Origin: Azolla caroliniana
Taxonomy: Eukaryota > Plantae > Polypodiophyta
Reading direction: 5' to 3'
Assembly: GCA_043228905.1 (NCBI GenBank)
Contig: JBHGNT010000015.1
Span: 2,480,001 to 2,544,000, forward strand
Length of the DNA stretch: 64,000 bases
The position numbers were made by a program, and so were the translations under genes. Shown one piece after another: positions 672-62,745 of the stretch (positions are counted from its first letter, which is position 1; every line of letters starts with the position of its first letter). The notes beneath the pieces are model-generated. The model saw nothing but the letters and a program-made list of their open reading frames with translations, did not search any database and was not told the origin of the DNA.

Positions 672-1123
672 TGTTGAGAGACAAGCTCAACATCGGCCAG
701 ATCGGCTGAGCAAGCCGAGGACTGGATCGATTGAGACCGATCGGTTAGGCCAGACCGGTGCGTAAAACAGATGCGTAAACCGGTACGCAAACCGGTGCGT
801 AGGAAGGACGTATCGGTGCGTAAACCGAAAGGCCGTTAGAAAGATATTCCTCGTAAGGAATAGTTTTGGGAGTAAGAGTCAAGGCTCATTTATGAGCAGT
901 CAAGTATTGTCAGTACTTGTGCCAGCCCGATTGTCAGGGCTTGTATAAAAGTGCTCATTGAGCACATCCTATGTACAGATTGAGCATTATTTTTTAATTA
1001 AGTTCTTGTGTTTACTCTCTCTTTGTCTCTCCCGTGTGTACTGTGCAAACCTAAGCTTTCCATTAAACCTGCGTTTTCTGTTGTTCGTTTTTTCTATATT
1101 GCTTCCGCACGCCATTCCTTTCA
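672..1123 (+). repeat. 5' LTR of copia-1
   Basis: 452 bp, TGTTGAG...TTTCA; direct repeat of 6016-6466 with roughly two dozen differences, mostly transitions. Confidence 0.95.
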
Positions 1124-1135
1124 TGGTATCAGAGC
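1124..1135 (+). promoter_or_regulatory. Primer binding site (tRNA-iMet) of copia-1
   Basis: TGGTATCAGAGC directly after the LTR. Confidence 0.95.
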
Positions 1136-1205
1136 GCGAGTGTTGAGAACCTCTGCAATCGACTTTGCTTGAAGGAAAAACCAATGAAGAAGAACAAGAA
1201 AACCG

Positions 1206-4200
1206 ATGGACAGAGGAATGGCTAGCTTGCTTCCGACGGAGAAGCTCGACAGAAACAACTACGCGTCTTGGTCTTACAAGATGCACCAGTACATGCTTGG
1301 ACACGGTTACTGGAGCTATGTCAATGGTGCAAATGACACAGTACCCGATTCGACACACAAAGACTTCCCGGTGTGGGAATAATCGGCGAGCAGAGTGTTG
1401 TACTGCTTCGCGTCTTGTGTGGGTGAACAACTGTTAAGCTACGTTCGGGATGCAAAAACGCCGAAGGGTGCATGGGAAAATCTAAAGAAGATTTTCGCCG
1501 CAAGCACCACAACTAGGAAGCTTCAGCTCCGACAAGGGTTGAGCAACCTACGACAACACGATTTGTCGGTGGCTGACTATACCTCGAAGATCAAGGACAT
1601 ATGCGACTCCTTAGCTTCCATCGATGTGAACATCGAGGAAAGCGAGATGGTCCAAGTCTGTCTCGGGGGTTTGGCGTCAAAGTTCGGTGCGTTCCGAACT
1701 GGTGTGTGTACCCGGGAGAATACACCGTCCTTTTTCGACTTACAATCGATGCTCTTGGTAGAGGAGAACCACGCGGGTGCGTCAACGAGCATGCACACCG
1801 ATAGCAAGATGTTGTACACGGAGGGAGATAGGCTCCGTGGTCGTGGCGGACGAGGCGAGTCGGTACGCAATGGAGGCGGCCGACGGGATCAAGGAAGAAG
1901 GCACCGAAGTGATGCCGACAGCAATTCCGGACCCTCCGGAAACAGGGAGAGTCGAGGCGACAAGAACCGGCAAGGGAAATCCGCCGCGGAATGCTGGTAT
2001 TGTGGCAAGAAAGGCCATAGGGAGAGCAAGTGTTGGAAAAAGCGCGCCGAGTCGGAGGGGACCGGGTCCGGATCTGGTTCCGGACATACCGACAAAGGAA
2101 ACTGGCAGGGATCACACTACGCCGAAGGATCCAGAAAAGCCGGAAAAGGGTCAGTCTTCGTGACGAGACACGAAGCAAACTCAATGAAGAAGATCACCCC
2201 GAAGTCGGAGGAGGTGTGGTACGTCGACTCCAGCGTGTCAAACCACATGACGTGCCACGAGGAGTGGTTCTCATACCTTGAGAAACCGACGCAACCAGGA
2301 GTAGTCGCAACCGGAGACGACACTCCGCATCCAATCGCGAATGTCGGTGAAGTTCCCTTGAGCCATGTTGGGCAGAAAGGGAAACTTATGAACGTGTTAC
2401 ACGTCCCGACCATCACGAAGAATTTGGTGTCAGTCGGGCAGATCGTCGACCAGGGGATGCAAGTTCGGTTTACACACCTCGGGTGCTTCATTGATGAAGA
2501 AGGCCGTATTATTGCGCAAGGGCGCAGAGATGGGAGGATGTTCATCCTTGACTCTATTGATGGTGGCACCACAATGTTTGCGAAGGGACAGAAAGTCGAG
2601 TCGGACATCGACTTATGGCACAAGCGGATAGGCCACATCAACTACCAGCGGCTTCAAAACCTGCAATCGAAACAAGTGGTGTTCGGATTGCCCAAATTTA
2701 GTGGCCGGAAGACACAAATTTGTGAAGCCTGCCAGCTTGGGAAGCAACACTGACTTCCCTTCCCCAACGAGCGTAACCGGAGCCAGAACAAGCTCGACGT
2801 GATACACTCCGATGTGTGGGGACTGACACAAAATGTTAGTCTTGGTGGGAGCCGATATTTTGTCTCCTTCATCGACGACTACACACAACACACATGGATC
2901 TACCTCATCGAGAGGAAGAGCGAAGTCTTCAACTGTTTCCGAGACCTCAAAGGGTTCGTGGAAATGGAAACAGGAAGACAGATCAAGTGCTTGCGGTCGG
3001 ATGGCGGAAAAGAATACTTTTACGGTCAATTCAACAGTTATCTACAACAAATGGGAATTCGACGCGAATTTAGTTGCAGATACACGCCGGAGCAAAACGG
3101 CATGGCCGAGAGGAAAAATCGGTCGGTTGTGGAAGCGGCATGGGCAATGCTGGAAGAGAAGAGCTTGCCCAAGTTCTACTGGGCCGAGGCGGTAAGGACC
3201 GCGGTATACATCCAAAATCGGATCGGAGATAAAGTGTCGGCGCACAAGCTATATTTCGGAATGAAGCCGAACTTGCGACACTTACGAGTTTTTGGTAGCA
3301 TTGCGTATGTGCATGTGCCGAAGGAGAAAAGGAGGAAGTTGGACGCGAAAGCCGAGAAGTGTATCTTGGTCGGCTATTCGGATGAGCAGAAGGGTTATAA
3401 GTGCTATAACCCGTGTACCAAACAAACGCGCGTGAGCCGCGACATTGTGTTTGATGAGTCCGCATCCTGGTACTTGCCCCCGACTCCGGACCTCACCTCC
3501 AATCCGGGTTCTGACGATGAGGTCAGCAAGACTGAGATGCCTCCGAATGAGCCTGAAATTGGGACCCACGAAGAGAGTCCGATTTCGTTTCGGTTAAGTG
3601 GACCGAATGGATGACTGAGTCGTTTCGACTAGTCCGATGAAGAGCTAGCGAGTAGTGGAGACTTGGCCGTACACTCCCCGCGCAGGAAGCCGAGGAGACA
3701 GCTTACGTGCAAAGAGAAAGGGAAGAAAAAGCTGTCGGATTCCGACACGTATAGAAACGAGTCAGACCGACGCGAGTCCGACTTCGAGGAAAGCGGTGAC
3801 GGGTCTTCAAGAGCGAAGTCCGCGTCGGTCGAGAAGACCTCGACATCGGCTAAAGACCGATTACGCCGATCTACCCACCAGAAGAACCCAGTTGTGTGGT
3901 TCGGATACAACGAGTACATGGCGCATCATTATGCATACATGACCCGTGTAGCGGAAGTGCGTGAGCCGGAGAGCTACGTAGAAGCGGCTAAGGACGCGAA
4001 CTGGCGCGCCGTGATGAAGGAAGATATGCACGCATTGGCGGAAAACGAGACCTGGACCTGGTTGACGCACCAAAGGGTGTGAAGCCGATCAGATGTAGGT
4101 GGGTGTACAAGGTCAAGTATAACACCGACGGCTCGGTCAACCGATACAAGGTCCGGTTAGTAGCAAAAGGCTACGCGCAGAAACACGACATTGACTATGA

Positions 4201-5510
4201 TGAGACGTTTGCTTCGATCGTGAAGATGACAACCGTTCGTGGTTTGCTCGCGGTAGCTGCGGCAAAGGGGTGGCACTTACATCAGATGGATGTAAAGAAT
4301 GTGTTCCTACAAGGTGAGCTTGAGGAACAGGTGTACATGGTACAACCCCCCGGATTTCACTACGGAACGAACACCTCGGCGGTATGCCGATTGAAGCAGT
4401 CCCTTTATGGACTGAAGCAAGCCCCACATGCCTAGAACGCGAAGATCACGCAGCAACTGTGTCGGATGGGCTTTGCAACGTCAAAATTAGACTCTTCCCT
4501 GTTCATTCGGAAAGGTCGACTCGGGCCGGTTAGTATTTTACTATATGTTGATGACTTGGTCATCACCGACGTTGACCTAGGTGAAATCGACCACGTGAAG
4601 CTCCAGCTTGCGGCATCATTCGACATGAAGGATCTGGGGGACCTTCATTACTTCCTTGGGATCGAAGTGGTCCGCACCCCCGAAGGCATACTGATCAGCC
4701 AACATCATTACGCGCTGAATATGCTCTTCAAATTCGGGATGGCAGACTGTAAGTCCGTCTCGACTCCTCTTGATAGAACTGTCAAGCTCCACCCCAATTC
4801 CGGAAAGGTGTGCGACCCGACGAGGTTCCAACAAATTGTTGGAAGCCTTATTTACTTGACAATCACCCGACTCGATCTTAGTTATCCGATCGGGGTGATC
4901 AGTCAGTTTATGGCGCGACCTACCAAGGAGCACCTTCAGTGTGCGCAACGCATACTGCGGTACGTAAGCAGCACTAAGGACCGCGGACTGCTATTTCGGA
5001 CCGGTCTAGCCCCGCAGTTGGTTGGCTACATCGATGCTGATTGGGCTGGCAACGCCGCCGATCGCCGATCCACGTCCGGATACGTGTTCTCTCTTGGGAG
5101 TGTCGCGATAGCGTGGAGTTAGCAAGAAACAGCCGACAGTTGCACTGTCGAGCACCGAAGCCGTGTATAGAGGAGCGGTTGTCGTGACATGCGAAGCCAT
5201 ATGGTTGAAGCAGCTACTTAAGGATCTGTAGGTGGAGGTGTCTGATCCGACGACGATCTATTGCGACAACCTCAGCAGTATCCAGCTCGCGAAGAACCCT
5301 GTCTTCCACGCATGGACCAAGCACATTGAGGTGCACTACCATTTTGTCCGTGAGCGTGTCCTTTTTGGTGAAGTCAAACTTCAGTATGTTCCGACGGATC
5401 GTCAGACCACCGACATCTTCACCAAGCCTCTTGGTCTGGACAAGTTGCGGCAATTCTCGGGTGCGCTTGGGTTGCGTCACCTTGACGTGCCGAACTTGAG
5501 GGGGAGAGAC
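1206..5510 (+). pseudogene. copia-1 gag-pol polyprotein pseudogene
   Basis: ATG at 1206 (MDRGMASLLPTEKLDRNNYASW); zinc knuckle CWYCGKKGHRESKC; PR WYVDSS; GAG-pre-integrase WHKRIGH; INT HSDVWG...SDGGKEY; [17 protein letters not shown]; RH YIDADWAG...KHIEVHYHF. In-frame stops (1380, 2751, 3612, 4433) and frameshifts. Confidence 0.92.
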
Positions 5511-6015
5511 GCCCCAGATGACCACAGAAGGGAGCAGGAAAGGAGCGGAAAAGACCGTAGCGCCGAGTCGGATGACAAATTCGATTTCGGATCGGCTGAA
5601 GAAGCCGAGGGCGGATCCGGGGAAGAGTCCGAAAGCGGTTTAAGGGGAGCAGCCGAAAGAAAGAGCCAAAGCCAACCAAGCATGGGGGAGATGATGCCGT
5701 CAAGGGCGAGAAGACTGAAGACGAGTTGGAGACAACCAACTCGGACGAGAGCGAAACTGATCGGAGGTAGCCGAGTCGGTTCGAGTGTTTGATTCGGATA
5801 CACTGAATCAACCGAGGGCCAATTGGAAAAGAAGGCAGCAGGAGAAGCGCCAACACTACGACAACAAGGGAGTTGTGAAGGGTTGTACCGACCGGAAGGG
5901 TCGAAGTGCACGGAGTCGAAAAGACTGAGGAGCGCGAGCGAGGCGTGGAGCCAGGAGGAACCGGAGCGGTGATACGGAAGATCCCAAAGAGCCTCAAGTT
6001 GAGCTTGAGGGGGAG

Positions 6016-6466
6016 TGTTGAGAGACAAGCTCAACATCGGCCGGATCGGCTGAGCAAGCCGAGGACCGGATCGGTTGGTGTCGATCGGTTAGGCCGGACC
6101 GGTGCGTAAAACGGATGCGTAAAACGGTACGCAACCGGTGTGTAGGAAGGACGTATCGGTGCGTAAACTGAAAGGCCGTTAGAAAGATATTCCTCATAAG
6201 GAATAGTTTTGGGAGTAAGAATCGAGGCTCATTTATGAGCAGTCAAGTATTGTCAGTACTTGTGCCAGCTTGATTGTCAGGGCTTGTATAAAAGTGCTCA
6301 CTGAGCACATCCTATGTACAGATTGAGCATTATTTTTGAATTAAGTTCTTGTGTTTACTCTCTCTTTGTCTCTCCCGTGCATACTGTGCAAACCTAAGCT
6401 TTCCATTAAACTTGCGTTTTCTGTTGTTCGTTTTTTCTAGATTGCTTCCGCACGCCATTCTTTTCA
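6016..6466 (+). repeat. 3' LTR of copia-1, preceded by PPT GAGGGGGAG (6007-6015)
   Basis: Direct repeat of 672-1123, followed by TSD GCACC. Confidence 0.95.
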
Positions 6467-7771
6467 GCACCCCGAAGCTCGATTTTGAAGAAGATATGCC
6501 CAGTTCGGAGTCGATCGAGGAGCGTTGGAATTAAGGGCAGGGGGTAACTATTACACATCGTAACTTTGTTGAGACCCCGATAATCCACACATAAGCATAA
6601 GGAGCCGTCCTTTTTTTTGACAAATAAGATTGGTGCCCCAGCCGGTGATTTGGAGGGTTGAATGAAGCCCTTCACGAGATTCTTAACTAGATATGTGCGA
6701 AGAGCCTCAAGTTTGGGTTCAGATTACCCATAGACAGGACCGAATAGGGGATGCTCACTGGCGTGGAGTTTGATTGGGCAATCGTAGGTGCACCTGAGTA
6801 TTTATACAAGAAGGTGGGGCTATGTAAGCCAGCTAGAAATAGAATATGCATGAGGATGCATGCAATAGAGAATGCATGAGAATGTGTGCAAGCTAGAAAC
6901 TTCCAATGTTCAATCTATACTACATGAAGTTGGATAGGGTTGCTAAATAGAGACCATGAGGTCTTGGGTTCAATACCTGTCTTCCTCCATGGCTTCTAAC
7001 TGTTTAAACCGTTAAGTCGCAGTTATGCGGTTCGATTCGGTTCAAACTGAACCGTTGCGAATTGTTAGATACCACTTGATGGAATGAATGCGCGGAAGTA
7101 AGTAAGGACTGTAGGTTATGTGCTCTGCAAACAACACAAAGAATATGACCGAAGAAATGATGGAAACGTTGTCGTGCCTTTCGGCGTCGGATTGTTGCGT
7201 GAGTCGAGCGGAAACCGTTGAGGTTATGGACTAGAAAGAGGAGGAATTTAAGGCAAATAGGAATGTGAATAGGTTGTAATAAAGAGATATAGAACCTTGT
7301 GAATCTCACGAGTGTATTGTATTAGGTTTATTAGTATTTAAAACCCTAATAACAAATTAAAAAATATTGGAAAAGAGAGATAGAAAATTGTGAATCACAC
7401 AAGTATAATCAATTCAATCAATGTTTAGAAACCCAACAAAAATCGACAACAACCCCTTACAATTTGTTCCCCCTGTTGAGAATCAAGCTCAACTTGGTCT
7501 AGTGTGTGAACTCACCTTGAGAGTGAATAGACACTCCAACGGTCAAGAGTCACCATTATGTCACCACTGTGTATTCTAGCATTTAGTATGAGTCATAGAA
7601 TCATATTCTATGACACATAACTTATGAGCTTTCACATTCCCCATGCTCCATGAGTCTTGTAGTTAATGAAGAGAGAGGGTGACTATATAAAGCACCCTCC
7701 TCGCACCTTGTATGAGTTGAGTCTTTCTCCTTTATTAATACAATCTACCTTGCGTATACTCTGTGTCTCTT

Positions 7772-7802
<31 letters not shown>

Positions 7803-7839
7803 TACACACATAACACACATCTATTCCGCTACTCCGACC

Positions 7840-9555
7840 GTGGCGGAATGTTCATGATGAAACATAGAGCAAACTCTATGTTGGCCTCTACCTCAACTAG
7901 TGCCACTGGTCCGGAAGACGTATGGTTCGTCGATTCTGGTGCCTCGAACCATATGACATCGCATCAAGAATGGTTCCGAGAACTTCGAGAGCCGGACTGA
8001 CCCGACTATGTCGAAACCGGAGACGACACTACGCACCCGATTCGGCACATCGGCAATGTTCCGTTCGGAAAAGAAGGTAAGCAAAATTACATTAAAAATG
8101 TCTTGCAAGGAAAAGAATTTGGTCTCCGTTGGCCAAATTGTAGAGCAAGGGATGCAAGTTCGATTTAATCAAGGTGGTTGCTTCATCGAAAAAGACGGTC
8201 GACTCATCGCATGCGGACGAAGAGAGGGCCGAACGTTCATTCTCGACTCACATGAGATGAAATCGGCCATGTTCGCAAAGGGCATGAAAGCTGACTCCGA
8301 CATAGAGTTATGGCACAAGCGGATTGACCATATAAATCTCCAAAAGCTCAAAGCAATGAAATCGAAAGGAGTCGTCATCGGACTCCTGACGTTCAAAGAG
8401 AAGGAGATTGAAGGTATATGCAAAGCGTGCCAATTCGGCAAGCAACACCGACACCCATTCCCAAAAGAGCGGAACGTGAGCAAAGGTCTACTCGACGTAG
8501 TCCATTCCGACGCATGGGAACCGGCGTAGACGGCTACATTCGGCGGATGTCGATATTACGTGCTCTTCATCGACGACTTCTCTAGGCACACTTGGATCAA
8601 CTTGATGTGACAAAAGAGCAAAGTGTTCGGACACTTCCAAACATTCAAGAATGAAGTCGAGAAAGCCACGGGCCGACATGTACAATAGAAGCCATGTACA
8701 ATAGTCGAGAAACATTTTCCGAAGCAGCCAAGGATCCGTGATGGATAGAAGCCATGAACGAGGAGATGCAGGCACTACGCAAGAATGAGACGTGGGATCT
8801 CCTTTCCACCTCACCACACAAAAAGGAGATCGGTTGTAGATGGATTTACAAAGTGAAGTACAACGCTGACGGTTTCGTCAACCACTACAAAACGCGACTC
8901 GTAGCGAAAGGCTACACCCAAACGCACGGAGTTGACTACGAGGAGACCTTTGCCCCGGTGGCAAAGATAACGACGGTACGAACCGTAATTGCGCTTGCTG
9001 CGGCGAAAGGGTGGCATCTCCATCAAATGGACATCAAGAACGCCTTTCTACAAGGCGAATTAGAAGAGGAGGTGTACATGATACAACCGCCCGGCTTCAA
9101 CTCGAGCACCCATCTGAAAGTTGTATGCCAACTCAAGAAGCCACTCTACGGCCTCAAGAAAGCACCGTGTGCTTGGCATTCGAAGATAACACAATATCTT
9201 CATCAAATCGGCTTCCGTATGTCAAAATCAGACAACTCCCTCTACATACGAAGCGATTTTGCAAGTCCGATCAACATCATCTTATATGTGGATGACCTAG
9301 TAATTGGCGGTGAGCATCTCGTCGACATCAATAAGGTCAAATCCCTCCTTTCCGACAAGTTCGAGATGACGGACATGAAGGAGCTCCACTACTTCCTAGG
9401 CATCGAGGTAATTCGGACTCCGGCCGGAATCATGATCTCTCAACGGCACTACATCCTCAACTTGTTATACAAGTTCGGTATGGCTGAGTGCAAATCTGCG
9501 GCAACCCCGCTCGATCGCAATCTCAAACTAGATGCAAACTCCGGCACCAAAGCGT
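7840..9555 (+). pseudogene. copia-2 pol, 5' part (PR, partial INT, RT)
   Basis: ORFs 8008-8529 and 8754-9563 align by eye with the copia-1 domains; stops, frameshifts and an ~1 kb integrase deletion. Confidence 0.85.
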
Positions 9556-10108
9556 TGTCGTGAAGAAAACCGGCCATAGGCGGAATCGGAGAGAAAAGCG
9601 CATGAATCGGCTCTTACACGTATGGACGCATGACTTGATATTTTGTACCCGATTCATAAATGGATCGGTGGGTGAAAATACTAAGAAGCACACATTTATC
9701 AGGGGATTGTGTGTATCTCTGTCAGGAGGGACAGGGAATAAAGCGAATTGACAAGAGGATGGGGATATAAAAAGGAAGAAGGGGAGGGGCGTTGGAAAAA
9801 GAAGAAGAGGAAGTGTTGCTGTAGAACCGAGGGTCGAGCTCTCTCTCTCCTCGGATCGTCGTTCTCTGCGGGTGTCGGGAGTTCGCTGCCTCTGCTTCGT
9901 GGACAGCCCGTGTGCTTCCAGCAGAGTCTCTCCCTTTCCCCTTTTGTTTCTTCGAGTCGTGTGACTGTCGTCGGTGTGCGTGAGTAGGGTCCCCGTGTCG
10001 GGTCCATCGCCGCCTTGTCGGTTGTAACCGTCGGAGTTTGTAATCTCTTGTCATTGTAATTAAGTGTTATGTTCTATATCTCTCCTTCTCGCTTCTACGT
10101 GCCTGTGA

Positions 10109-10150
<42 letters not shown>

Positions 10151-10212
10151 CCTTGGTCCAAGACCCTTGTGGTCCCGCCCCTTTCTACACGTACTCGCGT
10201 AACGACGCGACA
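9556..10212 (+). repeat. 5' LTR of nested gypsy (contains (CT)n)
   Basis: 657 bp; highly similar to 15919-16587, with the length difference in the (CT)n tract. TATA-like GATATAAAAA at ~9764. Confidence 0.95.
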
Positions 10213-10216
10213 TATT

Positions 10217-10233
10217 TGGTGAACCCGACGTGA
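10217..10233 (+). promoter_or_regulatory. Primer binding site complementary to tRNA-Trp
   Basis: TGGTGAACCCGACGTGA is the reverse complement of UCACGUCGGGUUCA-CCA, the 3' end of plant cytosolic tRNA-Trp as I recall it. Confidence 0.8.
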
Positions 10234-10256
10234 AAGGGCGGCAAAGGAGTCGAAAG

Positions 10257-12370
10257 ATGAGGGGTTCGGAGCTAGCAGAGGCAATGGCGGTGGCCGTCGA
10301 CCGGCTGGTGAGCGCTCGTGAGGGGACGGGTACCCTCGACAGAGCCATTGAATCGATCGTCGGCTCTATAGGCCATTTCGGAGGGAAAGACGCCACAAGT
10401 TATTTGGAGGCTTACCGGGCCGGAATGATCATGAGGGATATCCCGGTGGACAGGCGGCTGTTCGGATTCCCTCGGGTGGTGACGCCGGGCATCCACGCAA
10501 AGGTGCTCGAGGTGCTGACCGGATGCCAGACTTGGGAGGAGTTCGAGCTGCAGCTCCTCGAGAAGTACGGGTTTGACGACTCGCTTCGGCTGTCGAGGCG
10601 GGACTTCATGGCGTGGGTGGAAAGCCCCGGAAAGGGGAGGAACACGTCGGTGCTCCTCTAGGAGTTCGAAAAACGGTTCGCGCGGCTATCGACACTGGAC
10701 CGGACGGTGCTCGAAACAAGTTGAGTGCTACTGTTTGTCAAGTCGGTGGACGCGCTCGACAGGGAAAAGGTGGGTCCCCTATTGGAAACAGACGAAGGGC
10801 TCATGGAAGACTGGGCCGTGGTAAAACGGGTCTGCAGTCGTTTCGACAAACGACGCGATTGGAGCGACGGAAGCTCGTCGGGGTCGAGGCCGGTCCCGGG
10901 GAGGAGGCTGGAGGAGCCGGTATCGGTGCCGGCCGGTAGGAAGGAAGAGACCCGAATCTGGCCGACGTGGTCAGAGGCCCATCCGGAGGAGCGACTCTGG
11001 AGGAGCTGACACAAATGGTGTGCGACCTACAGATCGCACAGGCCTGGAGAGACAGCGGCGAACAACCTCGCGACCGGAGGCCGCCGACTGGGCAGCGGTG
11101 CATGTGGTGTGACACGATCGGTCACATTCGGAAGGATTGCGCGAATTTCGCTGACGTGCTCAGGACCAACGTGGTGTACCTCTGGAACGGGCGGGTGCAC
11201 GCGAGCGAGACCCGGAGAGCCCTAGAACTGAATACAGGGCAGGACGGAATGAAGAGGTTGATGGAAGAGGCCGCGACACGCCATGTAGAAGCCATTAACT
11301 TCTCAGTGTCGGCAGGAATTCGGGTCGGGGGTGATGAGACCCAGAAGGCGAAGGACTCCGGATTCTGGCCGCTAGTGCTAGAAGGCCTCTCCGGAGTTCG
11401 GTTGAAGAAGGAAGAGGCGGACCGCGCGGAACAGCGGGTCCAGGAGATCACGGGTTGGGACAATCCGGTCGAAGAGAAGACGGGCTTCGTAGAAGCCGTG
11501 TGCCAGAACTACGAGGTTTTGGTGGAAGACAAACGGGCCGGAAAGGCCGGAGGGGTCGGTCCCCCCCAGAGGTACGAGACTCGGTTCGGACCGAAACCGG
11601 CCGGTGCCGGCATCCCGGGTGTGCCGGATAGGAAAAAGCAGGCGGGGTTTCGGTTGACCACCGAAATCGAGAGAGCAACGGACCTACGGAAGGTCCTTGA
11701 AGAGCGAATCCTCGACAGTAAAGTGGAGTTGTCATTGCGGGAGGTGTTGGGAATCGCCAAGAGGGAGTTCCACGACTCTATCGTAGACTTGGTGAAGCGG
11801 AAGAGGCTCTCGACGGAGCCGGAACTGGAGAAGCCAGTGGAAGTGCGGACCATGCACTTGGAAGACGAAGCCCTGGAAGACGAGTTGGCGGGAAGCCACT
11901 ACACGAAGCCGCATTGGGCCAGGGCAACTGTGGAAACCCCTGTACGGATCGGCAATGTCCTGGAACCGGTGGTGGCGTTGGTAGACCATGGGTCCGAAAT
12001 CAACTTGATGTCCATGGATTTCTACAAGAAGGGTAAATGGCCGATCAACACCAAGCACGGCTGGAAGATACGGGCGGCGATGCGCACCACGGAAGAACTA
12101 CATGGGGCATGTCCGAACGTAAGGGTGAAAATCGGCGATGTCGAGATCGACCAACACTTCTTCGTGCAGGAGACGTCCTCGCATCCGGTTATACTAGGAG
12201 AGCCATATATCACGACGGCACGGATGGAGACCAAGGTGCTGGACAACGGTTCAGCCTATGCAAGAGTCAAGAGCTAGGAAGGGCGTCACTCGGTCCAGTT
12301 CCTAACGGTGCGACCAAACCACGAGCGTAACCGCGAGGCCCTCAGCGGCGAAACCCGAGGGGATTTTTAG
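10257..12370 (+). pseudogene. gypsy gag-protease ORF (disrupted)
   Basis: ATG 10257; zinc knuckle CMWCDTIGHIRKDC; aspartic protease ALVDHGSEINLM...ILGEPY; natural end ...TRGDF* at 12370; premature stops at 10659 and 12275. Confidence 0.85.
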
Positions 12371-15300
12371 AGAGGGCTATCAAGGCGTGGGGCCGCGATA
12401 GTACGGACACTCGGGAAGAACCCCACAAATGTACAGTACGGAAGAAGACCTGTACCATAGGTAGGAAATTTTGGTTCTCCGATAGCGGAGGTTGTACTAT
12501 AACCAGCGTCAGCGGTCGGGAGAGGAAGCGAGCGGAGGAGCGGCTTAGGGGATGTGGAGTCCTCTTCCCCGACGAGGACATCAACGGCGCCATGGAGGCG
12601 GTCTCTTTTGACGACACCTTGGGCGAACTGCGAAAGGTGAGCGGTGAAGACCTTAGGGAAGACCGGACCGTTCCGGTAGGGTCAATGGGAATGTACAAAG
12701 TCATCACAGACTTCGGGGAAAGGATCGGGTCGGATCGGACGGCCTGCGTGGATACGAAATACAAGACTGTGGACCGGAAGGTGAGGCCAGTCGGGGCACC
12801 CTTGCCGAAGGGCAGCGAGGAGCGGATAAAAGGGGTCGCGTCGGACCCAAGTTTACGAAATCCGGCTGGCATAGGGCACCGGTTCACCGACATAACGCTA
12901 CGGGAGCTCAAGGTCGGTGGGGGCGGCTTTCTACTGCTGGCAGAGGAGGACCGGTTCTGGAGAATGCTCGGGGGGCACGAGAAGGCTTTCGCATTCTCAC
13001 CGGAGGAGATCGGTTGCGTAGACCCGACAGTTGTCGAGCCGATGGTGATCTTCACGGTACCGCATGTACCGTGGAATCTCAAGCCGATTCCGGTGCCGAG
13101 AGCTCACATCCCGAAGTTGATGGAGCTCCTGAAGCAAAAGGTGGAGATGGGCGTCCTCGAACCGTCGAGTGCCCCGTATTCGAATCGGTGGTTTACGGTG
13201 CCGAAGAAGAACGGCACGCTGCGCTTCATTCAGGACTTGCAACCAGTCAACAAGGTGACCATCCGTAACGCAGGAATCAGACTGACCATAGACGAGTTCG
13301 CGGAGGCCTTCGCCGGAAGGTCGATTTACTCTGTCGGTGATCTGTACTCGAGGTATGATCAGTTCCAACTAGCTGCGGAGAGCAGAGACATTACGACGAT
13401 GCGGACTCCTCTCGGCCTAGTGCGGATGTGTACCCTACCACAAGGAGGGACGAACTCAGTGGCTCACATGGTGAAGGCGATGAACAAGGTGTTGAGGGAC
13501 TGTATCCCGGACATCACCATGCCATTCTTAGACGACATCCCGATCAGGGGATGCCCGGTGGAGGAAAAGGACGAGGCAATCGGGCCGGATGGATGTCGAA
13601 ATTTCGTGGCGACTCACATCGATGACTGCGAGAAGGTGCTGCAGAGACTAGAAGGCGCGAGGCTCACCTTCTCCGGGGAAAAATCGGCCTTCGGGCAATC
13701 AGAGATCATGGTCGTCGGGCACCTATGCGGACCGTACAGTCGAAAATCGTCTCCAGCCAAGGTGGAAGCCATCTCCGCGATGAAGCATGACTGCAATTCC
13801 GTCACGGAGGTCCGTAGATTCTTGGGAGCGTGCGCATTCTACCACATCAGGATCCCGCACTACGCACATGTCGCGGAACCCCTCTACGAACTATTGAAAA
13901 ATGGGTGTAGCTTTGAGTGGAGGATGGAGCACACGGAGTCGGTACGAAGACTAAAGGAGGCGCTTACGGTAGTGCCGACTCTCTGTAAAGCGGTTTACGG
14001 CAAGGATGTTCCCATCTGCGTGACGGTGGACACCAGCCCGACCGGGATCGGGTGGCTAATCAGTCAGGAGGACAAGGACGGCGTATGATTCCCGATCCGG
14101 TTTGGGGTGAAGGTATTGAGCGAGCGGCAGCGAGGGTACGCCCAAGTTAAGCGCGAGCTTTGGGGTGTCGTTTCGGAAGTCAAGGCCGACAAGGATTATC
14201 TGATCGGGACAGAGGTGATCATCGAGACAGACTGCGTGCTGATACTCAACATGGTTTCTGGATGCGCGACGCCGGACCTAGCCATGCTCCGGTGGATAGC
14301 GTACATTAAGTCCCGGAACCCGGATATACGGCACATCTCCGGAAAGGACAACGCCATGGCCGACATGCTTTCAAGGGCAAGGTTCAATGACGAAGACGGC
14401 ATGGTTTCGGATGACGAAGAAGTCGGCGAGGACTTCTTCGGGTCGGCTAACGTAACGATGAGAAAAGGGAACACTCCGGCGCTTAACGAATTTGACGAAA
14501 GCGGGTACGACGGGGAGTGGCTCCAAATCGGGAGGTTCCTACGGACGATGACGCCAGACGCAGCATGGGCGAGAAAGGAGGCGAGCCGGGTACGGAAGAA
14601 GGCATACCGATTCTTCCTGCGGGACGGGTGCATATGGAGGCACCCAAAGAAGTGAAGCAGCATCCCACTCCGAGTAGTGGCAAAGAAAGAAGAGCAGGGG
14701 AAACTACTAGCGGCATTTCACGAGAGCCCCTGGGCCGGACACCGCGGAACTTGGGCGACGTTCGAGAAGCTAAAGGAGAAGTACTGGTGGTCGGGGCTGT
14801 ACCAGGACGTGCATCGGTTCGTAATGACTTGCGAAAGTTGTCAGATGCACTCCACAGTCCGACACCGGGACGAGCTACACCCGACCTACCCGCCTACGGT
14901 CCATTTCAAGTGGATGGAGGACTTGGTGATGATGCCGATGGGGGTAGGACAGATGTGATACCTGGTGCTTGATGGGAAGACTTAACGAACTAGGTGGAAG
15001 GTCGTGCACTGCAAAGCAAGACAACCGCGGCGGTATGCCGGTTCTTGGTCGAAGAAGTAGTGTGTCAGTACGGGTGCGTCGGGAGGATCGTGGCAGACCG
15101 GGGAGAGCTGGATGTGCGGGAAGCTGAGGAGCTGTTTGACCGGCTAGGCGTCAAACTCTCCCTCACTACGGCGTACAATCTGGAGGCGAACGGAAAGGTA
15201 GAACGTGGGCACGGGCCTATCGTAAAGGCGTTGGTGCGTGCATGCTGAGGGCAGGTCGGGAATTGGCCGCGACTCCTTACGCACTATGGGCGGACTGAAC

Positions 15301-15849
15301 TACACATAGTTTGGTAACAGGGTTTATGCCGGCAGAGCTGATGTACGGATAGAAGCCGATCATGACGGTGGAACGAACGGTTTCTTCATGGGTGGTAGTA
15401 GATTGGAAGGACGAAATGAGTCAGAGGAGTTGCTGGCAGCGCGGATCCGGCAGCTCGAGCGGAGGCCAGAGGACGTGATACATGCGAAGGAAAAGCTGTG
15501 AGTGGTAAGGGAGCGGAACAAGACCCGGTTCAATCGGACGCACCGGTTACGACCAAAGAAGATCGAGGAAGGCGACTGGGTCTTGGTATACTACAACAAC
15601 CTCGACAATCAGCAGAAGGCGGTGCAAAAGTTTGCTAGGAGGTGGTTCGGGCCCTACATGGTGACGAGCGCGAACGACAACGGCACGTACCACCTTGCGG
15701 AACTTGACGGGACATGGTTAGCAGTGCCAGTGGCCGGGAAGCAAATCAAAGCGTTCAAAAAGCGGTTCGAAGACGTGCCGGAGCCTGCGAGCGGGAGCGA
15801 CAACGATGATCAGTTCGGGCCCGGCGGAGAATCGGAGAACAACGACTGA
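12361..15849 (+). pseudogene. gypsy pol (RT-RNase H-integrase), disrupted
   Basis: RT QDLQPVN...LPQG...PFLDDIPI; RH VDTSPTGIG...ETDC; INT HHCC (HESPWAGH...CESCQ), core ADRG, GPY/F motif RWFGPY; no chromodomain. Confidence 0.88.
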
Positions 15850-15918
15850 GGCCGGTTTTCTTCGGTATCTACCCGTCTCTGGCGCATGTCGGTGGATGCG
15901 TGGTTTGGTGGGGGTGGA

Positions 15919-16470
15919 TGTCGTGAAGAAAACCGGCCATAGGCGGAATCAGAGAGAAAAGCGCATGAACCAGCTCTTACATGGATGGACGCGTGACTTG
16001 ATATTTTGTACCCGATTCATAAATGGATCGGTGGGTGAAAATACTAAGAAGCACACATTTATCAAGGGATTGTGCGTATCTCTGTCAGGAGGGACAGGGA
16101 ATAAAGCGAATTGACAAGAGGATGGGGATATAAAAAGGAAGAAGGGGGGGGGGGTTGGAAAAAGAAGAAGAGGAAGTGTTGCTGTAGAACCGAGGGTCGA
16201 GCTCTCTCTCTCCTCGGATCGTCGTTCTCTGCGGGTGTCGGGAGTTCGCTGCCTCTGCTTCGTGGACAACTCGTGTGCTTCCAGCAGAGTCTCTCCCTTT
16301 CCCCTTTTGTTTCTTCGAGTCGTGTGACTGTCGTCGGTGTGCGTGAGTAGGGTCCCCGTGTCGGGTCCATCGCCGCCTTGTCGGTTGTAACCGTCGGAGT
16401 TTGTAATCTCTTGTCATTGTAATTAAGTGTTACGTTCTATATCTCTCCTTCTCGCTTCTACGTGTCTGTG

Positions 16471-16525
<55 letters not shown>

Positions 16526-16587
16526 CCTCGGTCCAAGACCCCCGTGGTCCCGCCCCTTTCTACACGTATTCGCGTAACAACGCGACA
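15919..16587 (+). repeat. 3' LTR of nested gypsy
   Basis: Preceded by G-rich PPT GGTGGGGGTGGA; followed by TSD GCGT. Confidence 0.95.
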
Positions 16588-16591
16588 GCGT

Positions 16592-17307
16592 GTGAGCCGA
16601 CTCAGTATCAGCAACTCATCGGGAGTCTCATCTACCTCACGATCACTCGACCCGATCTCAATTATCTGGTCGGTCTCCTTAGCCAATTCATGCAAACACC
16701 GTGTGATGCTCACTTGGATTGCGCTAAGCGAGTTCTACGATATGTGAGCGACACAATGGATTACGACATCCTCTACAAGATCGCGATGCCAATACGACTT
16801 GAGGGGTACACAGACGCCGATTGGGCTGGCTACAAAGCTAATAGAAGATCAACCTCCAGATTTGTTTTCTCCCTCGACAACGAAGCAATATCCTGGAGCA
16901 GGAAAAAGCAATCAATCGTCGCTCTTTCGAGCATAGAGGCGGAATACAAGGGCGCGGCAGTGGCCGCATGTGAAGCCATATGGCTCAAAAGGATAGTCAA
17001 GGATATGGGCGTACGCATCAAGGATCTGACTTCCCTTTACTGTGACAACATGAGTAGTATCTATCTGGCTCGGAACCCGGTGTTCCACGTGCGGACAAAG
17101 CACATCGAAGTGCACTATCACTTCATCCAAGAGCACGTTCTAGCTGGCGATGTCGACCTACAACACATTAGCACCAATCTTCAAACGACCGACATCTTCA
17201 CTAAAGCCTTAAGAGCCGACAAGCTATGGCAATTCATGACCGATCTCGGATTGACGATCCCTGACCTGCCAAGTTTGAGGGGGAGTGTTGAAGACACTAC
17301 ACAATAA
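16592..17307 (+). pseudogene. copia-2 pol, 3' part (RT end, RNase H)
   Basis: YQQLIGSLIYLTITRPD...YTDADWAG...KHIEVHYHF...DIFTKAL. Confidence 0.88.
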
Positions 17308-17508
17308 CGCGTGGATTCCGCAACCACACAGCAAAGCCGCGAAGAAAGACGCAAGTCGAAGCACAGACTTCGCAACTACGCACAACGCAAGCTGGAGCAC
17401 GGATTCCACAACTCCGCATAAATTCGAGTTGACACGAACTCCGGAATGCAAGTCGAAGCGGATTTCGGATACCGTCTAAAACCGACCCGACTTGAGCTTG
17501 AGGGGGCG

Positions 17509-17811
17509 TGTTGAGAATCAAGCTCAACTTGGTCTAGTGTGTGAACTCACCTTGAGAGTGAATAGACACTCCAACGGTCAAGAGTCACCATTATGTCACC
17601 ACTTTGTATTCTAGTATTTAGTATGAGTCATAGAATCATATTCTATGACACATAACTTATGAGCTTTCACATTCCCCATGCTCCATGAGTCTTGTAGTTA
17701 ATGAAGAGAGAGAGTGACTATATAAAGCACCCTCCTCCCACCTTGTACATGTTGAGTCTTTCTCCTTTGTTAATATACTTTTACCTTGCGTATTCTCTGT
17801 GTCTTATTCCT

Positions 17812-24785: not shown

Positions 24786-27700
24786 ATGAAACGAAGTGTT
24801 ACACTGGGTGTGCCTTCTGGTTCAGATAGAATTTCTGCAAAAGAGTCACCGGGATTCCAAAGATGGATGTTAGCCCTATGTGCCATCAGATTTGACCTAG
24901 AACAGGGTCAAGTAGTGGAATCATGCTACCCAGAGGGAGCCATCACTTCTGAAGAAGAAATAGATGTAGCATTTACTTCCTTCCCAGATTCCATGTCTCA
25001 GGGACATAACCGCACTAGTGTCTATGATTGCATGTTCTTCTTCCGAATCAGAAGGCGTGGCTCAACTTCAGCCATAAGAACTAGGTCTTCTCCCAATCCA
25101 GAAATGATTGATCACAATCCTCCAGAGAGAAGTAGTGTCGATGAGAGATCTACATCTCTCAGTAAAGGTGGACCTTCAGGTCTCTCTCAACCAGGGCTTC
25201 TTAGGAGGGTTACACGTGATGGATCAGTTTCTTTCGATGCTCGAAGGCTTGATGGTATATCTTATGATGATGGAAGTGGAAGGATTTGGACTTTGCCTAG
25301 AGGAACAAGTACTGAAGGTGGCATTGCCCTTTCTCAGCAAAACTCAGATCAAAGGAGTGTAGCTAGAAATAGTAGCCACGGTGGCCCCGGAAGTGGTGGT
25401 CCGAGATACCTTTATGGATTTGTTTTCAATAGGCAACGGAAGGATGAACGACTAAAACGAGGGGGTGAACAAAAGTCTGTGGTCATCCTATCAGAACGTC
25501 CTTATTCGAATGTTTTCAGATCTCTTTTGCAAATCTTGGGTCCACTTTACTTTGATATAGGATTCCAAGGGCTTGAACAGATTGCCAGCTATGTATCTCA
25601 GTGGCCAGCCCCTGTTCACGGTGCATTGATGGAGTTATCTGTTGGAAATGTTTCTCTGAGGGCGCATCTTCCTCCAGCTCATACTCTTCCTCCAGGTTGT
25701 GGCACACCAATGGATGATTTCACATCTTCAATGGCCCCTGCCTCCCCTTTGAATCCTTCTATCCCACATGGTATTTTCCATGAGGCTGATGTGTTTGGAA
25801 TATTTCGTGGTATTCTTTTGGAACTTTGGGAGCTTTGGGAACTTGTTCTTATTGGTGAACCATTGCTTGTTATTGCACCAACACCGTCACAATGTTGTGA
25901 AGCTGTGGCAGCATTGGTTGGTTTAGTGGCTCCTTTACCTTGCAGTGTGGATTTTCGTCCTTACTTTACAATCCACGATCCGGATTTCACTAGTTTGAAT
26001 TCTCTCAAAGAAGGAGAGACAATTCCTCCAATGATTCTAGGAGTTACAAATCTCTTTTTCCTGAAGGCTATGCGAACCCTTCCACATGTGGTGTCAGTGG
26101 GTTCCTCATTATCCATTCCAAATAAGACAATTGTAACAAGATCTAGTACACCAAATAATGGAGGTAATAATAACCTTGGGCGATTACAACTACAACTTTC
26201 CCCTCTGAAGAAATTTTCCCCAACCAATCTACTTAAGAATGCCAGGGTGAAACGTGATGGACCACTTTGTCTCATGACTGAACATAGAGAGGCTTTATGG
26301 ACAAATTATATGGCCACCACAAAGCCAGATACAGCAGTGTTGAATCGTCTTGTGGATGCTGGGTTATCACCAAGGATAGAAGAATCCATGACACTGGTCA
26401 ACAATGACATCCTTCGGCGTCATTTCTCCGAATTGACCACAAACTTCCTTGCTCCGTTTGGTCCGTACTTAAAGGCCACAGCACCACAAGAAGGAATATC
26501 ACCATTTGTAGATCCCCCACCATTGCTTCCCTTCGATGCTCATGGATTCTTGGAAGGACTTGGGGCAAGAGGTCCAGGGAAGTTCTTATCAAAGCGGTTA
26601 CGTTCCAACTGGCTTGATCTCTACAGGTATTGTTAAACTTTTGACATTTTGTACTTCATTTTCTTGTGAATTTATCTGATTGGCTGTCTCACTTTTCTTC
26701 TCTATAGGAGGTTCTTGAAAGGACCCAACTTCATGCCTTGGTTCCAAAGAAGACGTGCAGTCGCTGAGCAAGAACAACATCGTGTATGGAGGCAAGCAAG
26801 GGTTAAATCTGATATTCGTGTATTTATCTCGAAAATGTCAGAGGTGGAAGTGATCGATTCTTTCAATGCTGTAGAGCGGCAGTTACTAGCTGAAATACAG
26901 GTACATTTTACTGCTACATATTCTCATTTGTTGTATACCCTGAAATTTGAATTTATTAAAGGGAAAAACTCTGAAATACCCGAGTTTATCTGAATTACCC
27001 AAATGCCTATAAGAGTTAATTATTTTCCCAATTTATCTAGGTCACCCTGTGCTATCGGAACTATCATACAGCCAATTCAGCCTCTGTTTGTCAGTTATTT
27101 GCATATAAATTCAAGGTAGACATTTAGGGTTAGTCTTTAATGTTCTCTTCTTCTTAGAGCAAACCTTCACTTACATTTCTGTTCAGGTCTCTGATTAGTT
27201 ATGCCATAATACATTGTGAATTGCCAAACATTCTTTCGTTGAATGTCTGTAATGCAAATTCTTTCTCTTCCCAGTCCAATTCAGGTAATGCCCCTTCCAA
27301 AGATGTTAGAACTAAAAATCCTACTACAATCAGAACCATAATAGGCATGTGCAGTTTGGAATTGGGATGGGATAGTCTCCACCCTTTACTTCTTTTCTCA
27401 AGCATATCCTGCTAAATCCATACAATTCTGAAACCATAATTAGAGCTGCATCAGGAAGTTCTTCATTATTCATGCTGAACTCCAAAGCTTAAAGGTAACA
27501 ATATCTTGCAAAGGTGTTAGAACTAAAAATCCTACTACAATCAGAACCATAATAGGCATGTGCAGTTTGGAATTGGGATGGGATAGTCTCCACCCTTTAC
27601 TTCTTTTCTCAAGCATATCCTGCTAAATCCATACAATTCTGAAACCATAATTAGAGCTGCATCAGGAAGTTCTTCATTATTCATGCTGAACTCCAAAGCT

Positions 27701-30700
27701 TAAAGGTAACAATATCTTGCAAAGGTGTTAGAACTAAAAATCCTACTACAATCAGAACCATAATAGGCATGTGCAGTTTGGAATTGGGATGGGATAGTCT
27801 CCACCCTTTACTTCTTTTCTCAAGCATATCCTGCTAAATCCATACAATTCTGAAACCATAATTAGAGCTGCATCAGGAAGTTCTTCATTATTCATGCTGA
27901 ACTCCAAAGCTTAAAGGTAACAATATCTTGCAAAGGTGTTAGAACTAAAAATCCTACTACAATCAGAACCATAATAGGCATGTGCAGTTTGGAATTGGGA
28001 TGGGATAGTCTCCACCCTTTACTTCTTTTCTCAAGCATATCCTGCTAAATCCATACAATTCTGAGACCATAATTAGAGCTGCATCAGGAAGTTCTTCATT
28101 ATTCATGCTGAACTCCAAAGCTTAAAGGTAACAATATCTTGCAAAGGTGTTAGAACTAAAAATCCTACTACAATCAGAACCATAATAGGCATGTGCAGTT
28201 TGGAATTGGGATGGGATAGTCTCCACCCTTTACTTCTTTTCTCAAGCATATCCTGCTAAATCCATACAATTCTGAAACCATAATTAGAGCTGCATCAGGA
28301 AGTTCTTCATTATTCATGCTGAACTCCAAAGCTTAAAGGTAACAATATCTTGCAAAGGTGTTAGAACTAAAAATCCTACTACAATCAGAACCATAATAGG
28401 CATGTGCAGTTTGGAATTGGGATGGGATAGTCTCCACCCTTTACTTCTTTTCTCAAGCATATCCTGCTAAATCCATACAATTCTGAAACCATAATTAGAG
28501 CTGCATCAGGAAGTTCTTCATTATTCATGCTGAACTCCAAAGCTTAAAGGTAACAATATCTTGCAAAGGTGTTAGAACTAAAAATCCTACTACAATCAGA
28601 ACCATAATAGGCATGTGCAGTTTGGAATTGGGATGGGATAGTCTCCACCCTTTACTTCTTTTCTCAAGCATATCCTGCTAAATCCATACAATTCTGAAAC
28701 CATAATTAGAGCTGCATCAGGAAGTTCTTCATTATTCATGCTGAACTCCAAAGCTTAAAGGTAACAATATCTTGCAAAGGTGTTAGAACTAAAAATCCTA
28801 CTACAATCAGAACCATAATAGGCATGTGCAGTTTGGAATTGGGATGGGATAGTCTCCACCCTTTACTTCTTTTCTCAAGCATATCCTGCTAAATCCATAC
28901 AATTCTGAAACCATAATTAGAGCTGCATCAGGAAGTTCTTCATTATTCATGCTGAACTCCAAAGCTTAAAGGTAACAATATCTTGCAAAGGTGTTAGAAC
29001 TAAAAATCCTACTACAATCAGAACCATAATAGGCATGTGCAGTTTGGAATTGGGATGGGATAGTCTCCACCCTTTACTTCTTTTCTCAAGCATATCCTGC
29101 TAAATCCATACAATTCTGAGACCATAATTAGAGCTGCATCAGGAAGTTCTTCATTATTCATGCTGAACTCCAAAGCTTAAAGGTAACAATATCTTGCAAA
29201 GGTGTTAGAACTAAAAATCCTACTACAATCAGAACCATAATAGGCATGTGCAGTTTGGAATTGGGATGGGATAGTCTCCACCCTTTACTTCTTTTCTCAA
29301 GCATATCCTGCTAAATCCATACAATTCTGAAACCATAATTAGAGCTGCATCAGGAAGTTCTTCATTATTCATGCTGAACTCCAAAGCTTAAAGGTAACAA
29401 TATCTTGCAAAGGTGTTAGAACTAAAAATCCTACTACAATCAGAACCATAATAGGCATGTGCAGTTTGGAATTGGGATGGGATAGTCTCCACCCTTTACT
29501 TCTTTTCTCAAGCATATCCTGCTAAATCCATACAATTCTGAAACCATAATTAGAGCTGCATCAGGAAGTTCTTCATTATTCATGCTGAACTCCAAAGCTT
29601 AAAGGTAACAATATCTTGCAAAGGTGTTAGAACTAAAAATCCTACTACAATCAGAACCATAATAGGCATGTGCAGTTTGGAATTGGGATGGGATAGTCTC
29701 CACCCTTTACTTCTTTTCTCAAGCATATCCTGCTAAATCCATACAATTCTGAAACCATAATTAGAGCTGCATCAGGAAGTTCTTCATTATTCATGCTGAA
29801 CTCCAAAGCTTAAAGGTAACAATATCTTGCAAAGGTGTTAGAACTAAAAATCCTACTACAATCAGAACCATAATAGGCATGTGCAGTTTGGAATTGGGAT
29901 GGGATAGTCTCCACCCTTTACTTCTTTTCTCAAGCATATCCTGCTAAATCCATACAATTCTGAAACCATAATTAGAGCTGCATCAGGAAGTTCTTCATTA
30001 TTCATGCTGAACTCCAAAGCTTAAAGGTAACAATATCTTGCATTATTTAAAAGCTTTCTTGAGTTTCAGGTAATTTCAAGGAAATATATGGGACTTTCAA
30101 TGTGTGTGTGTGCCTGAACTGATCAATCTTTAACATTGTATGGTATTTCCATATATTCCATGGAGTTGATTAAATGCTTTAGTGCATACACAAATATTTT
30201 TATGCACATATCAAGAATTATTTTTATGATCTGCCCAATCTGTGAGAACCTTCAAAATTGCTATTTCATACACTCGAATTAGCAGGTTATCATGGACACT
30301 TATTGGGTTATACTGGAGAGATGAGTTAATGAAAATTGAGACCCAGACCCCTGAAGAGGATAAATAGCTCCCTTTATTTTTCATGAAGATCACGCCTAGT
30401 ATCTCCACCATGCATACATTCCAAAGTAACATGCTCTTCTGGTATTTTGAGGTGACATTGGTCACAAACTTTTCTTTTTCTGCTCAATAAGAAAAGGTCA
30501 GAGAGCTCAAACATGATAGCAAAGTCAATCTAATTAGTGAGGATGATTGTGTTATTATAGTGATGAATTATTATGTCTTATCATTCATTTGATGATGAAT
30601 ACAATTATTAACATTTACGGGCTCATTTAAAGACATTTTACTGTATTCTAGTTGGATTTCAGACAATAAAACTCACTTCTGCATTCCAACTCTAGGATTT

Positions 30701-57580: not shown

Positions 57581-57968
57581 GACTCATAGACGTGTCCAAA
57601 AGCATTTGTTATGAATTTTCTTCAAGTTAAGATACACACGCCATACATCTTGAGACTCTCACTTTCCATGATGATTATGAGCATCGAAATGTTGTGGACC
57701 ATATGCTTAAGGTTTAAAATGAAATGAAAATTTGTAGTATCGTTTTGGAAACAAGTAAAAAATTCAAAAAGATACACAAAAAGGCCAAACGATCGAGTTC
57801 AAGATGCATGGAAGAGATGACAAAAGGTAAGTCTGAATAATGGATGAATTACACTTGCTTTATGATGCACCAATATATTCTTTTGCAATTGAAGTTTTTT
57901 TTATGCCAACATATCATGACTTAGGAAATATGTGGAATCTCATGTTCCACATGATATATTACATATTT

Positions 57969-58630: not shown

Positions 58631-58640
58631 AACTCCCCCT

Positions 58641-62714: not shown

Positions 62715-62730
62715 TTTCTGTGTTAACCGT

Positions 62731-62742
62731 GCTCTGATACCA
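62731..62742 (-). promoter_or_regulatory. Primer binding site (tRNA-iMet) of copia-3
   Basis: TGGTATCAGAGC on the minus strand, 3 nt from the LTR. Confidence 0.95.
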
Positions 62743-62745
62743 CTT

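Follow-up and report, generated by a model that had tools for sequence, protein, structure and literature searches.

How a plant retrotransposon that carries its protease with Gag reaches its Pol frame is the question raised by a 7,032-bp gypsy element in a 64-kb stretch of Azolla caroliniana DNA (assembly GCA_043228905.1, contig JBHGNT010000015.1, positions 2,480,001 to 2,544,000 of the forward strand; hereafter the window, in whose own numbering coordinates are given), where it lies nested in the reverse transcriptase (RT) gene of a copia element. A preliminary description, made from the letters of this stretch alone, had placed a slippery heptamer and an H-type pseudoknot at the end of the gag-protease frame and proposed that the family makes Gag-protease (Gag-PR) abundantly and Gag-PR-Pol by -1 frameshifting. 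Conservation of the junction among relatives supports that interpretation, and we put at about 0.9 the probability that pseudoknot-stimulated -1 frameshifting yields abundant Gag-PR and rarer Gag-PR-Pol in this family.

The positions originally proposed hold: GGATTTTTAG lies at 12361-12370, a TAA at 12328-12330 precedes the -1 frame, both pairings fall where they had been drawn, and the -1 frame is open from 12331 to 14088 into RT (RVT_1, E 8e-12). That the gag-protease frame ends at the heptamer is true of the family; in the window copy, however, it has already stopped at 12275, 31 codons upstream of the heptamer, which had gone unnoticed. Further stops in Gag-PR lie at 10659 and 10722, with a frame change near 10940-11010, and Pol carries stops at 14086, 14653 and 14956 together with frame changes in the integrase. 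The window copy is thus dead and records the signal without being a working example of it. In sister contigs from four sequencing runs the base at 12275 differs over 94 to >99% of the summed depth, and that at 12403, a single private mismatch in the first stem of the predicted structure, over 98-99%. Since a lone decayed copy cannot show that an offset is programmed, relatives were needed to settle the question. Besides the dead state of the copy, the first description had overlooked the Phygy-like lineage of the element and a branch with Pol in the -2 frame, both treated below.

Related elements share the offset between Gag-PR and Pol

In a metagenome scan, the best 80 of 189 relatives (loci designated L) were examined, 76 of them from one accession series. 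Six were excluded because they end or break before the junction (L023, L045, L074, L076) or have neither a heptamer of the pattern sought nor Pol behind (L054, L070), leaving 75 usable sequences (74 loci and the window), which at 90% identity fall into 39 clusters; in the protease region, pairs of them are as little as 56% identical. Pol is open to its first conserved motif in the -1 frame at 58 of the 74 loci, in the -2 frame at two, in frame 0 at none, and could not be assigned at 14; 30 of the 58 -1 loci stay open for at least 900 codons. Between 12150 and 12800, the window was also compared with 1,582-7,174 sister contigs per run in four runs, none of which is listed with an indel between the protease and stem 1; the only indels listed in that interval fall at 12434-12447, in one or two contigs. 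Leaving the Riccia gene models aside, an RT-anchored search gave 83 Pol proteins, 77 of which have no protease. Contig depth peaks over the signal (6.7x the median bin in X1) but cannot rank the parts, and it is not used as evidence.

These counts bear directly on the possibility that a decayed copy owes its offset to a private indel and its stems to chance. The window copy invites such an explanation through its several private stops and frame changes and its unremarkable folding when taken alone, yet the same offset recurs at 58 of 74 loci, no junction indel is listed in the four runs and the stems covary. Intact sister copies with protease and RT in one frame, which had been named beforehand as the finding that would undo the proposal, number 0 of 74. 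The conserved offset refutes the private indel, to which we assign a negligible probability.

The heptamer is conserved at synonymous positions

The slippery heptamer G_GAU_UUU (12361-12367, plus strand), which is the sole GGATTTT on the element's plus strand, spans the final two Gag-PR codons and in the upstream frame reads as an X_XXY_YYZ heptamer. Its conservation was examined in a set of 74 sequences (73 loci and the window) picked by their protein end only. Asp-Phe-stop ends 61 of them, and all 61 read G_GAT_TTY (58 TTT, 3 TTC), as do 28 of 28 such ends after dereplication. In the protease region of the same loci, GAC encodes 157 of 398 Asp residues and TTC 204 of 301 Phe residues, and a G precedes Asp in 137 of 398 cases, while the stop codon itself varies among the 61 (TAG 24, TAA 27, TGA 10). 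Judged from this codon use, the heptamer is fixed beyond what the protein needs, at synonymous positions. Heptamers picked by nucleotide pattern in the 74 loci read GGATTTT in 63 cases, GGATTTC in 4, GGGTTTT in 3, GGTTTTT in 2 and GGTTTTC in 1, with one decayed. A GGA start is a known variant of such heptamers and G_GAU_UUU is the site of pea enation mosaic virus (PMC5009743, excerpt), in keeping with the earlier statement that GGAUUUU functions in plant viruses.

The frame that ends on this heptamer (10257-12370, plus strand) encodes a zinc knuckle, a DUF4100 region and a protease; it is broken in the window copy and uninterrupted in relatives P0001 and P0003 (706-717 amino acids). On the window's protease region (11939-12274, plus strand), Pfam gives only weak aspartyl-protease matches (E 0.04-0.09); the predicted structure of relative P0002, with a predicted local distance difference test score of ~85-90 over the domain, nevertheless matches Ddi1 and retroviral proteases (E 5e-7), and it is on this fold match that we place a retropepsin-type protease in the Gag frame. 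Its catalytic motif, DHGS at 11984-11995, has D and G invariant across 30 relatives. The usual form is D-S/T-G, from which DHGS departs. Alpharetroviral proteases, which are produced in amounts equal to Gag, are weak enzymes (PMC3185560, excerpt).

A protein search returned 224 matches, of which 120 were listed, some of them named entries of Physcomitrium patens, Riccia or Adiantum. Among the 120 listed, 47 end in xF soon after the protease (44 in DF) and 31 in [DG]F-xxx-P[LF], Physcomitrium, Adiantum and Riccia entries being found among the proteins with these ends; the others comprise 3 VFx ends, 6 other ends, 11 proteins that run on and 22 that have no end motif.

A compact pseudoknot is predicted six nucleotides downstream

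A 6-nucleotide (nt) spacer that opens with the Gag-PR stop codon (12368-12373, plus strand) separates the heptamer from the predicted structure. The junction alignment, built on sequence only, comprises 39 junctions from 38 clusters, with the window's cluster entered twice and L034 too short to be included. On it, RNAalifold returned, unprompted, one 8-bp stem 6 nt after the heptamer, which in the window pairs 12374-12381 with 12397-12404 (plus strand) apart from the mismatch at 12403, and which is intact in L002, L005, L016 and others. The GCTATC/GATAGT pairing first described is therefore part of this stem 1, although the stem is 8 rather than 6 bp long and starts 6 rather than 8 nt after the heptamer, so that its predicted core lies within the 5-9 nt over which stimulatory structures are expected. 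Six of its eight pairs show two-sided changes, with 1-3 broken cells per pair, and an 11-pair version exceeds 500 of 500 shuffles on all five measures, with 80% pairing as against 24-45% in slid controls.

Stem 2 completes the predicted H-type pseudoknot by pairing 12387-12392 with 12421-12426 (plus strand), the GTGGGG/CCCCAC helix already proposed at this place. Because its register moves with the length of loop 3 (11-16 nt in the family), it was tested without an alignment: loops scored against their own partners reach a mean of 15.9, with 38 of 39 at 12 or above, whereas swapped partners give 13.6 +/- 0.36 (0 of 5000 reach the observed value), shuffles 11.6 and later windows 9.4 (49 of 306). 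The best helix is non-homologous in a few decayed rows. Compensatory variants such as GAGGGU/ACCCUC, GCGAGA/UCUCGC, CAAGG/CCUUG and GGGACA/UGUCCC show that this stem, too, covaries in the family. At five loci, the Gag stop lies five codons further downstream, inside the structure, and heptamer, spacer and stems keep their spacing. Conservation of heptamer, spacer and frame offset, together with compensatory changes in both stems, is what had been asked of a family alignment at the outset. The pseudoknot score of the window copy is matched by 4 of 200 shuffles and that of each of five relatives by 0 of 200; it is conservation across the family, not the window sequence alone, that lifts the signal above chance. 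In Rfam the junction structure has no match, and among viral contigs 81 pattern matches include no relative. Loop 3 of the closest relatives can additionally form a small hairpin (CCGG...CCGG; 12403-12415) that overlaps the foot of stem 1 and is not seen in distant members.

We envisage that the pseudoknot would make a ribosome pause while GAU and UUU occupy its P and A sites, that the tRNAs would re-pair on GGA and UUU, and that a minority of ribosomes would thereby slip back one base. Translation would then continue from ...D-F into L-E-R-A-I... and through ~130 linker residues into RT-RNase H-integrase, and the protease would cut the resulting Gag-protease-Pol precursor in the particle.

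The segment behind the slip site and other routes to Pol

Pol (12367-15849, plus strand), with RT, RNase H, integrase and an SH3-like tail, lies in the -1 frame and is broken in the window copy. It begins with a weakly conserved leader of 129 codons (12367-12753, plus strand) that runs from the slip site to the first conserved RT-side motif (TKYK). Across the family, the leader measures 118-153 codons, is alignable from its first codon and contains invariant residues; 29 aligned leaders, chosen for their open frame, hold 0 stops in the Pol frame as against 250 and 355 in the other two. The first AUG of the Pol frame falls anywhere from codon 1 to codon 109, and early in many loci. From this pattern of open frame and conserved residues, we conclude that the segment after the slip site is probably translated. 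Pfam, PDB and fold searches assign no known domain to it: PDB sequence matches are at chance level (E 0.03-0.85), and its structure model has low confidence (predicted template-modelling score 0.31) with no fold match. Searched with Pfam, the window's Pol pieces and four Pol proteins, of which three are truncated where their locus ends, show neither a chromodomain nor an additional RNase H. We also considered membership in TatI, for which an additional RNase H between protease and RT would be expected, and rejected it, as 0 of 29 leaders match an RNase H family. In the distant single-frame relatives P0401-P0404, the ~130-residue leader is absent or much shorter.

An open frame behind the stop could also be reached without a slip. 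One such route is an Ogre-like intron between protease and RT, spliced from some of the transcripts, with the structure aiding splicing or packaging: Ogre elements do splice there (PMC6317226, excerpt), and gene models of Riccia fuse Gag-PR with Pol over the site. The Riccia joints, however, differ in place from model to model, as would be expected from gene-finder guesses, and in the 29 loci chosen as open, the leader can be aligned and stays open right from its first codon (58 of 74 in the unselected count). An intron would moreover leave unexplained why a heptamer fixed at synonymous sites stands 6 nt from a stem, and we consider it very improbable. No more credit is due to separate production of Pol by re-initiation, internal initiation or a sub-genomic RNA, with the structure serving that purpose or packaging or dimerization. 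A conserved RNA structure does not by itself name its function and many Pol frames contain an early AUG, but the position of the first AUG is not fixed, the frame is open back to the heptamer and G_GAU_UUU is invariant at synonymous positions. A leader open from its first codon with no fixed AUG thus argues against both an Ogre-type intron and re-initiation.

Several observations pull the other way. The loci are drawn overwhelmingly from a single assembly series (76 of 80) and reduce to 39 clusters; an interruption follows shortly behind the site in 11 of the 74, and 3 end too soon. The shuffles and slid windows that served as covariation controls ignore relatedness. By itself, the window copy folds no better than shuffles when pseudoknots are left out (ViennaRNA z -0.89), and a 3-bp hairpin within its loop 1 competes with the predicted fold. 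All 12 of the long fused protease matches are Riccia gene models. Finally, protease and RT stand in one frame in the six exceptions of the RT-anchored search, namely P0213, an ENA protein with an RT 59% identical, and five relatives at 41-48% identity.

P0213, available as protein only, is basal among the relatives and has one frame for its Gag region, protease and Pol; it may stand for a lineage with a single frame or be a mutant copy. Since protease and RT share a frame in distant relatives, the Gag-PR/Pol split is likely derived in this clade, as judged from an unrooted comparison.

A sister branch carries Pol in the -2 frame

Two loci depart from the -1 arrangement. In L052 (2835-2907) and L058 (2497-2569), Gag-PR ends in CAG GTT TTT, one further codon and a stop; the site reads AG_GUU_UUU, and 5 nt separate it from stem 1. 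The only frame open for Pol is -2 (= +1), which encodes RT, RNase H and integrase over 983 and 985 codons. In a midpoint-rooted RT tree of 23 rows, the two form a clade with support of 100/99 nested among -1 elements, and they share 81% protein identity at a synonymous divergence (dS) of 1.2-1.3 and a nonsynonymous divergence (dN) of 0.10. Their Gag tail aligns with those of the -1 relatives up to Q-V-F versus Q-D-F. No indel is listed for the L052 junction in a comparison with four runs, which carry four organism labels and contribute 46, 78, 14 and 29 contigs; one gapless contig covers all 241 of its bases at a depth of 2431 and further gapless contigs cross the site, while four listed contig pieces over the junction carry gaps. 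A third locus, L075, pairs G_GUU_UUC with a 6-nt spacer and has Pol in the -1 frame.

[quoted passage not shown] On a U6A heptamer, -2 slippage is optimal at spacers 1-2 nt shorter than for -1, pseudoknots included (PMC3458567; PMC7618472, excerpts). From the configuration of the two loci, we think it probable that the pseudoknot drives a -2 slip here, the same structure acting on AG_GUU_UUU across a spacer of 5 nt. Set against this are the small base of two families on which the -2 reading stands and the Gag frame of L052, which is open for only 286 codons upstream; members of the L052 protein cluster measure 724 amino acids and have the same end.

Because -2 and +1 shifts give the same frame, the two are indistinguishable by frame, and Pol of L052 and L058 might instead be reached by a +1 shift or by transcriptional slippage on the U run. 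In L058, UUU_UAC followed by a stop would permit +1 re-pairing of tRNA-Phe, and the two plant cases known in 2003 were +1 (PMC5009743, excerpt). In L052, on the other hand, UUU_GAC makes a poor +1 site. Read in the Gag frame, both loci have AG_GUU_UUU, and in both the distance to the pseudoknot is shorter by exactly 1 nt than in the -1 relatives, while L075, whose spacer is 6 nt, is -1. This leaves the +1 and transcriptional routes as the rather unlikely alternatives to a -2 slip. If the -2 slip is real, L052 and L058 would be eukaryotic retroelements in which structure naturally drives a -2 frameshift, and would put the mRNA-tension model to a natural test: with -1 and -2 sisters one spacer base apart, the spacer-tension model, so far demonstrated on engineered human immunodeficiency virus cassettes, becomes testable on natural signals.

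Lineage and relation to known recoding systems

The element shares with Phygy a 4-bp NCGN duplication, a short body filled by coding sequence, the lack of a chromodomain or extra RNase H, and close Physcomitrium patens homologues, P. patens proteins being close matches in the protein search. Phygy, a clade of non-chromovirus Ty3/gypsy elements, was described by Neumann et al. (2019) with an NCGN 4-bp duplication (100%) and a tRNA-Trp primer (81%), its coding organization being listed as not determined (PMC6317226, excerpt). It was defined from P. patens alone, with a length of 7656-9968 bp in that one species as against 7032 bp here, and the text and table excerpted from the same source mention no frameshift signal. 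As our element falls below the P. patens range, we call it Phygy-like rather than Phygy; by its homologues, it is a Phygy-like element with relatives in mosses, liverworts and ferns.

Its layout is that of the alpharetroviruses, as had been pointed out: in Rous sarcoma virus (RSV) and myeloblastosis-associated virus (MAV), the protease shares the frame of Gag and is produced in the same quantity (PMC3185560, excerpt), and Pol is reached by -1 frameshifting (PMC5009743, excerpt), as predicted here. The present element differs in being a plant retrotransposon with no env, another heptamer and a 130-residue linker before RT. The RSV heptamer is A_AAU_UUA. Distant relatives with protease and RT in one frame make it likely that the alpharetrovirus-type layout arose independently in this group.

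The -1 signals of umbraviruses and dianthoviruses consist of a bulged hairpin with a long-range partner, whereas a compact local H-type pseudoknot with no Rfam match is predicted here. Shared features are the heptamer (that of pea enation mosaic virus), the plant ribosome and a stop close behind the site (PMC5009743, excerpt). Among plant gypsy elements, the Ogre and Retand lineages (Tat) likewise keep Gag-protease and RT-RNase H-integrase in separate coding units, but through a spliced intron-type gap in Ogre and a single in-frame stop in Retand instead of overlapping frames, and in Tcn1 and Selgy the frames overlap before the protease; no lineage in the table of that classification overlaps after it (PMC6317226, excerpt). 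The generalization that most plant gypsy elements put the protease in the pol frame or use one reading frame was thus too strong, given how common a Gag-PR/RT split is, although an overlap and slip after the protease remain unusual. The PRRSV nsp2TF signal of arteriviruses resembles the L052/L058 clade in shift-site sequence and -2 frame, but depends on nsp1-beta and poly(C)-binding protein with no obvious structure (PMC4937337, excerpt), whereas a cis-acting pseudoknot is predicted 5 nt downstream in the clade.

According to Atkins et al. (2016), a 2003 survey recorded two plant types in separate frames, both +1 (PMC5009743, excerpt), and a 2025 review of plant elements treats frameshifting, in its excerpted part, in general terms only (PMC12786077). 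The literature searched, which did not extend to subscription papers, Repbase or GyDB, yielded no description of this signal, and the excerpts of PMC7466625, PMC5014426 and PMC2864245 contain nothing on it. On the strength of its conservation, we regard the junction as a real recoding signal whose mechanism is of a known kind, at a position and in a lineage for which no description was found. Given the limited search, and because the Tcn1 overlap may itself be a frameshift, we do not claim the first plant -1 retrotransposon.

A broader proposal follows, towards which we lean with less assurance than towards its parts: Phygy-like elements of seed-free plants may have independently evolved the alpharetroviral Gag-PR/Pol layout with a compact pseudoknot, and one of their lineages may have switched from -1 to -2, with no protein required, by losing one spacer base and changing GAU to GUU. 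[quoted passage not shown] A lineage-wide -1 signal with dozens of natural variants would fill the 'not determined' cell for Phygy-type elements, account for the introns that gene finders invent at the Gag-PR/Pol junction and supply short frameshift cassettes for plant ribosomes.

Structure and setting of the window copy

The gypsy element is flanked by GCGT on both sides (9552-9555 and 16588-16591), which fits an NCGN 4-bp duplication in the single insertion examined, and the interrupted copia RT frame continues across it. Its 5' LTR (9556-10212, plus strand, TG...CA) and 3' LTR (15919-16587, plus strand) diverge by 2.9% (638 matches and 19 mismatches over 657 aligned bases), and each contains a (CT)n microsatellite of unequal length (10111-10148 versus 16473-16526). 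The putative primer-binding site TGGTGAACCCGACGTGA (10217-10233, plus strand), which we take to be complementary to tRNA-Trp, recurs, the same or near-identical, at 34 of the 80 loci, L052 and L058 among them; a primer tRNA search returned three bacterial stretches, none containing a tRNA. A purine-rich tract (15907-15918, plus strand) precedes the 3' LTR.

The copia element that hosts the insertion in its RT spans 7474-17775 on the plus strand (LTRs 7474-7740 and 17509-17775; RVT_2, E 7e-75). Elsewhere in the window, a further LTR pair at 672-6432, ~5.3 kb apart and 92-96% alike, encloses an interior that resembles this copia element, and a 13-copy array of a 211-bp unit, 99% alike, occupies 27294-30042. 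On the minus strand, a copia element at 57967-63043 with an uninterrupted 1,368-codon frame has LTRs identical across the 300 bases compared, by which measure it is a very recent insertion.

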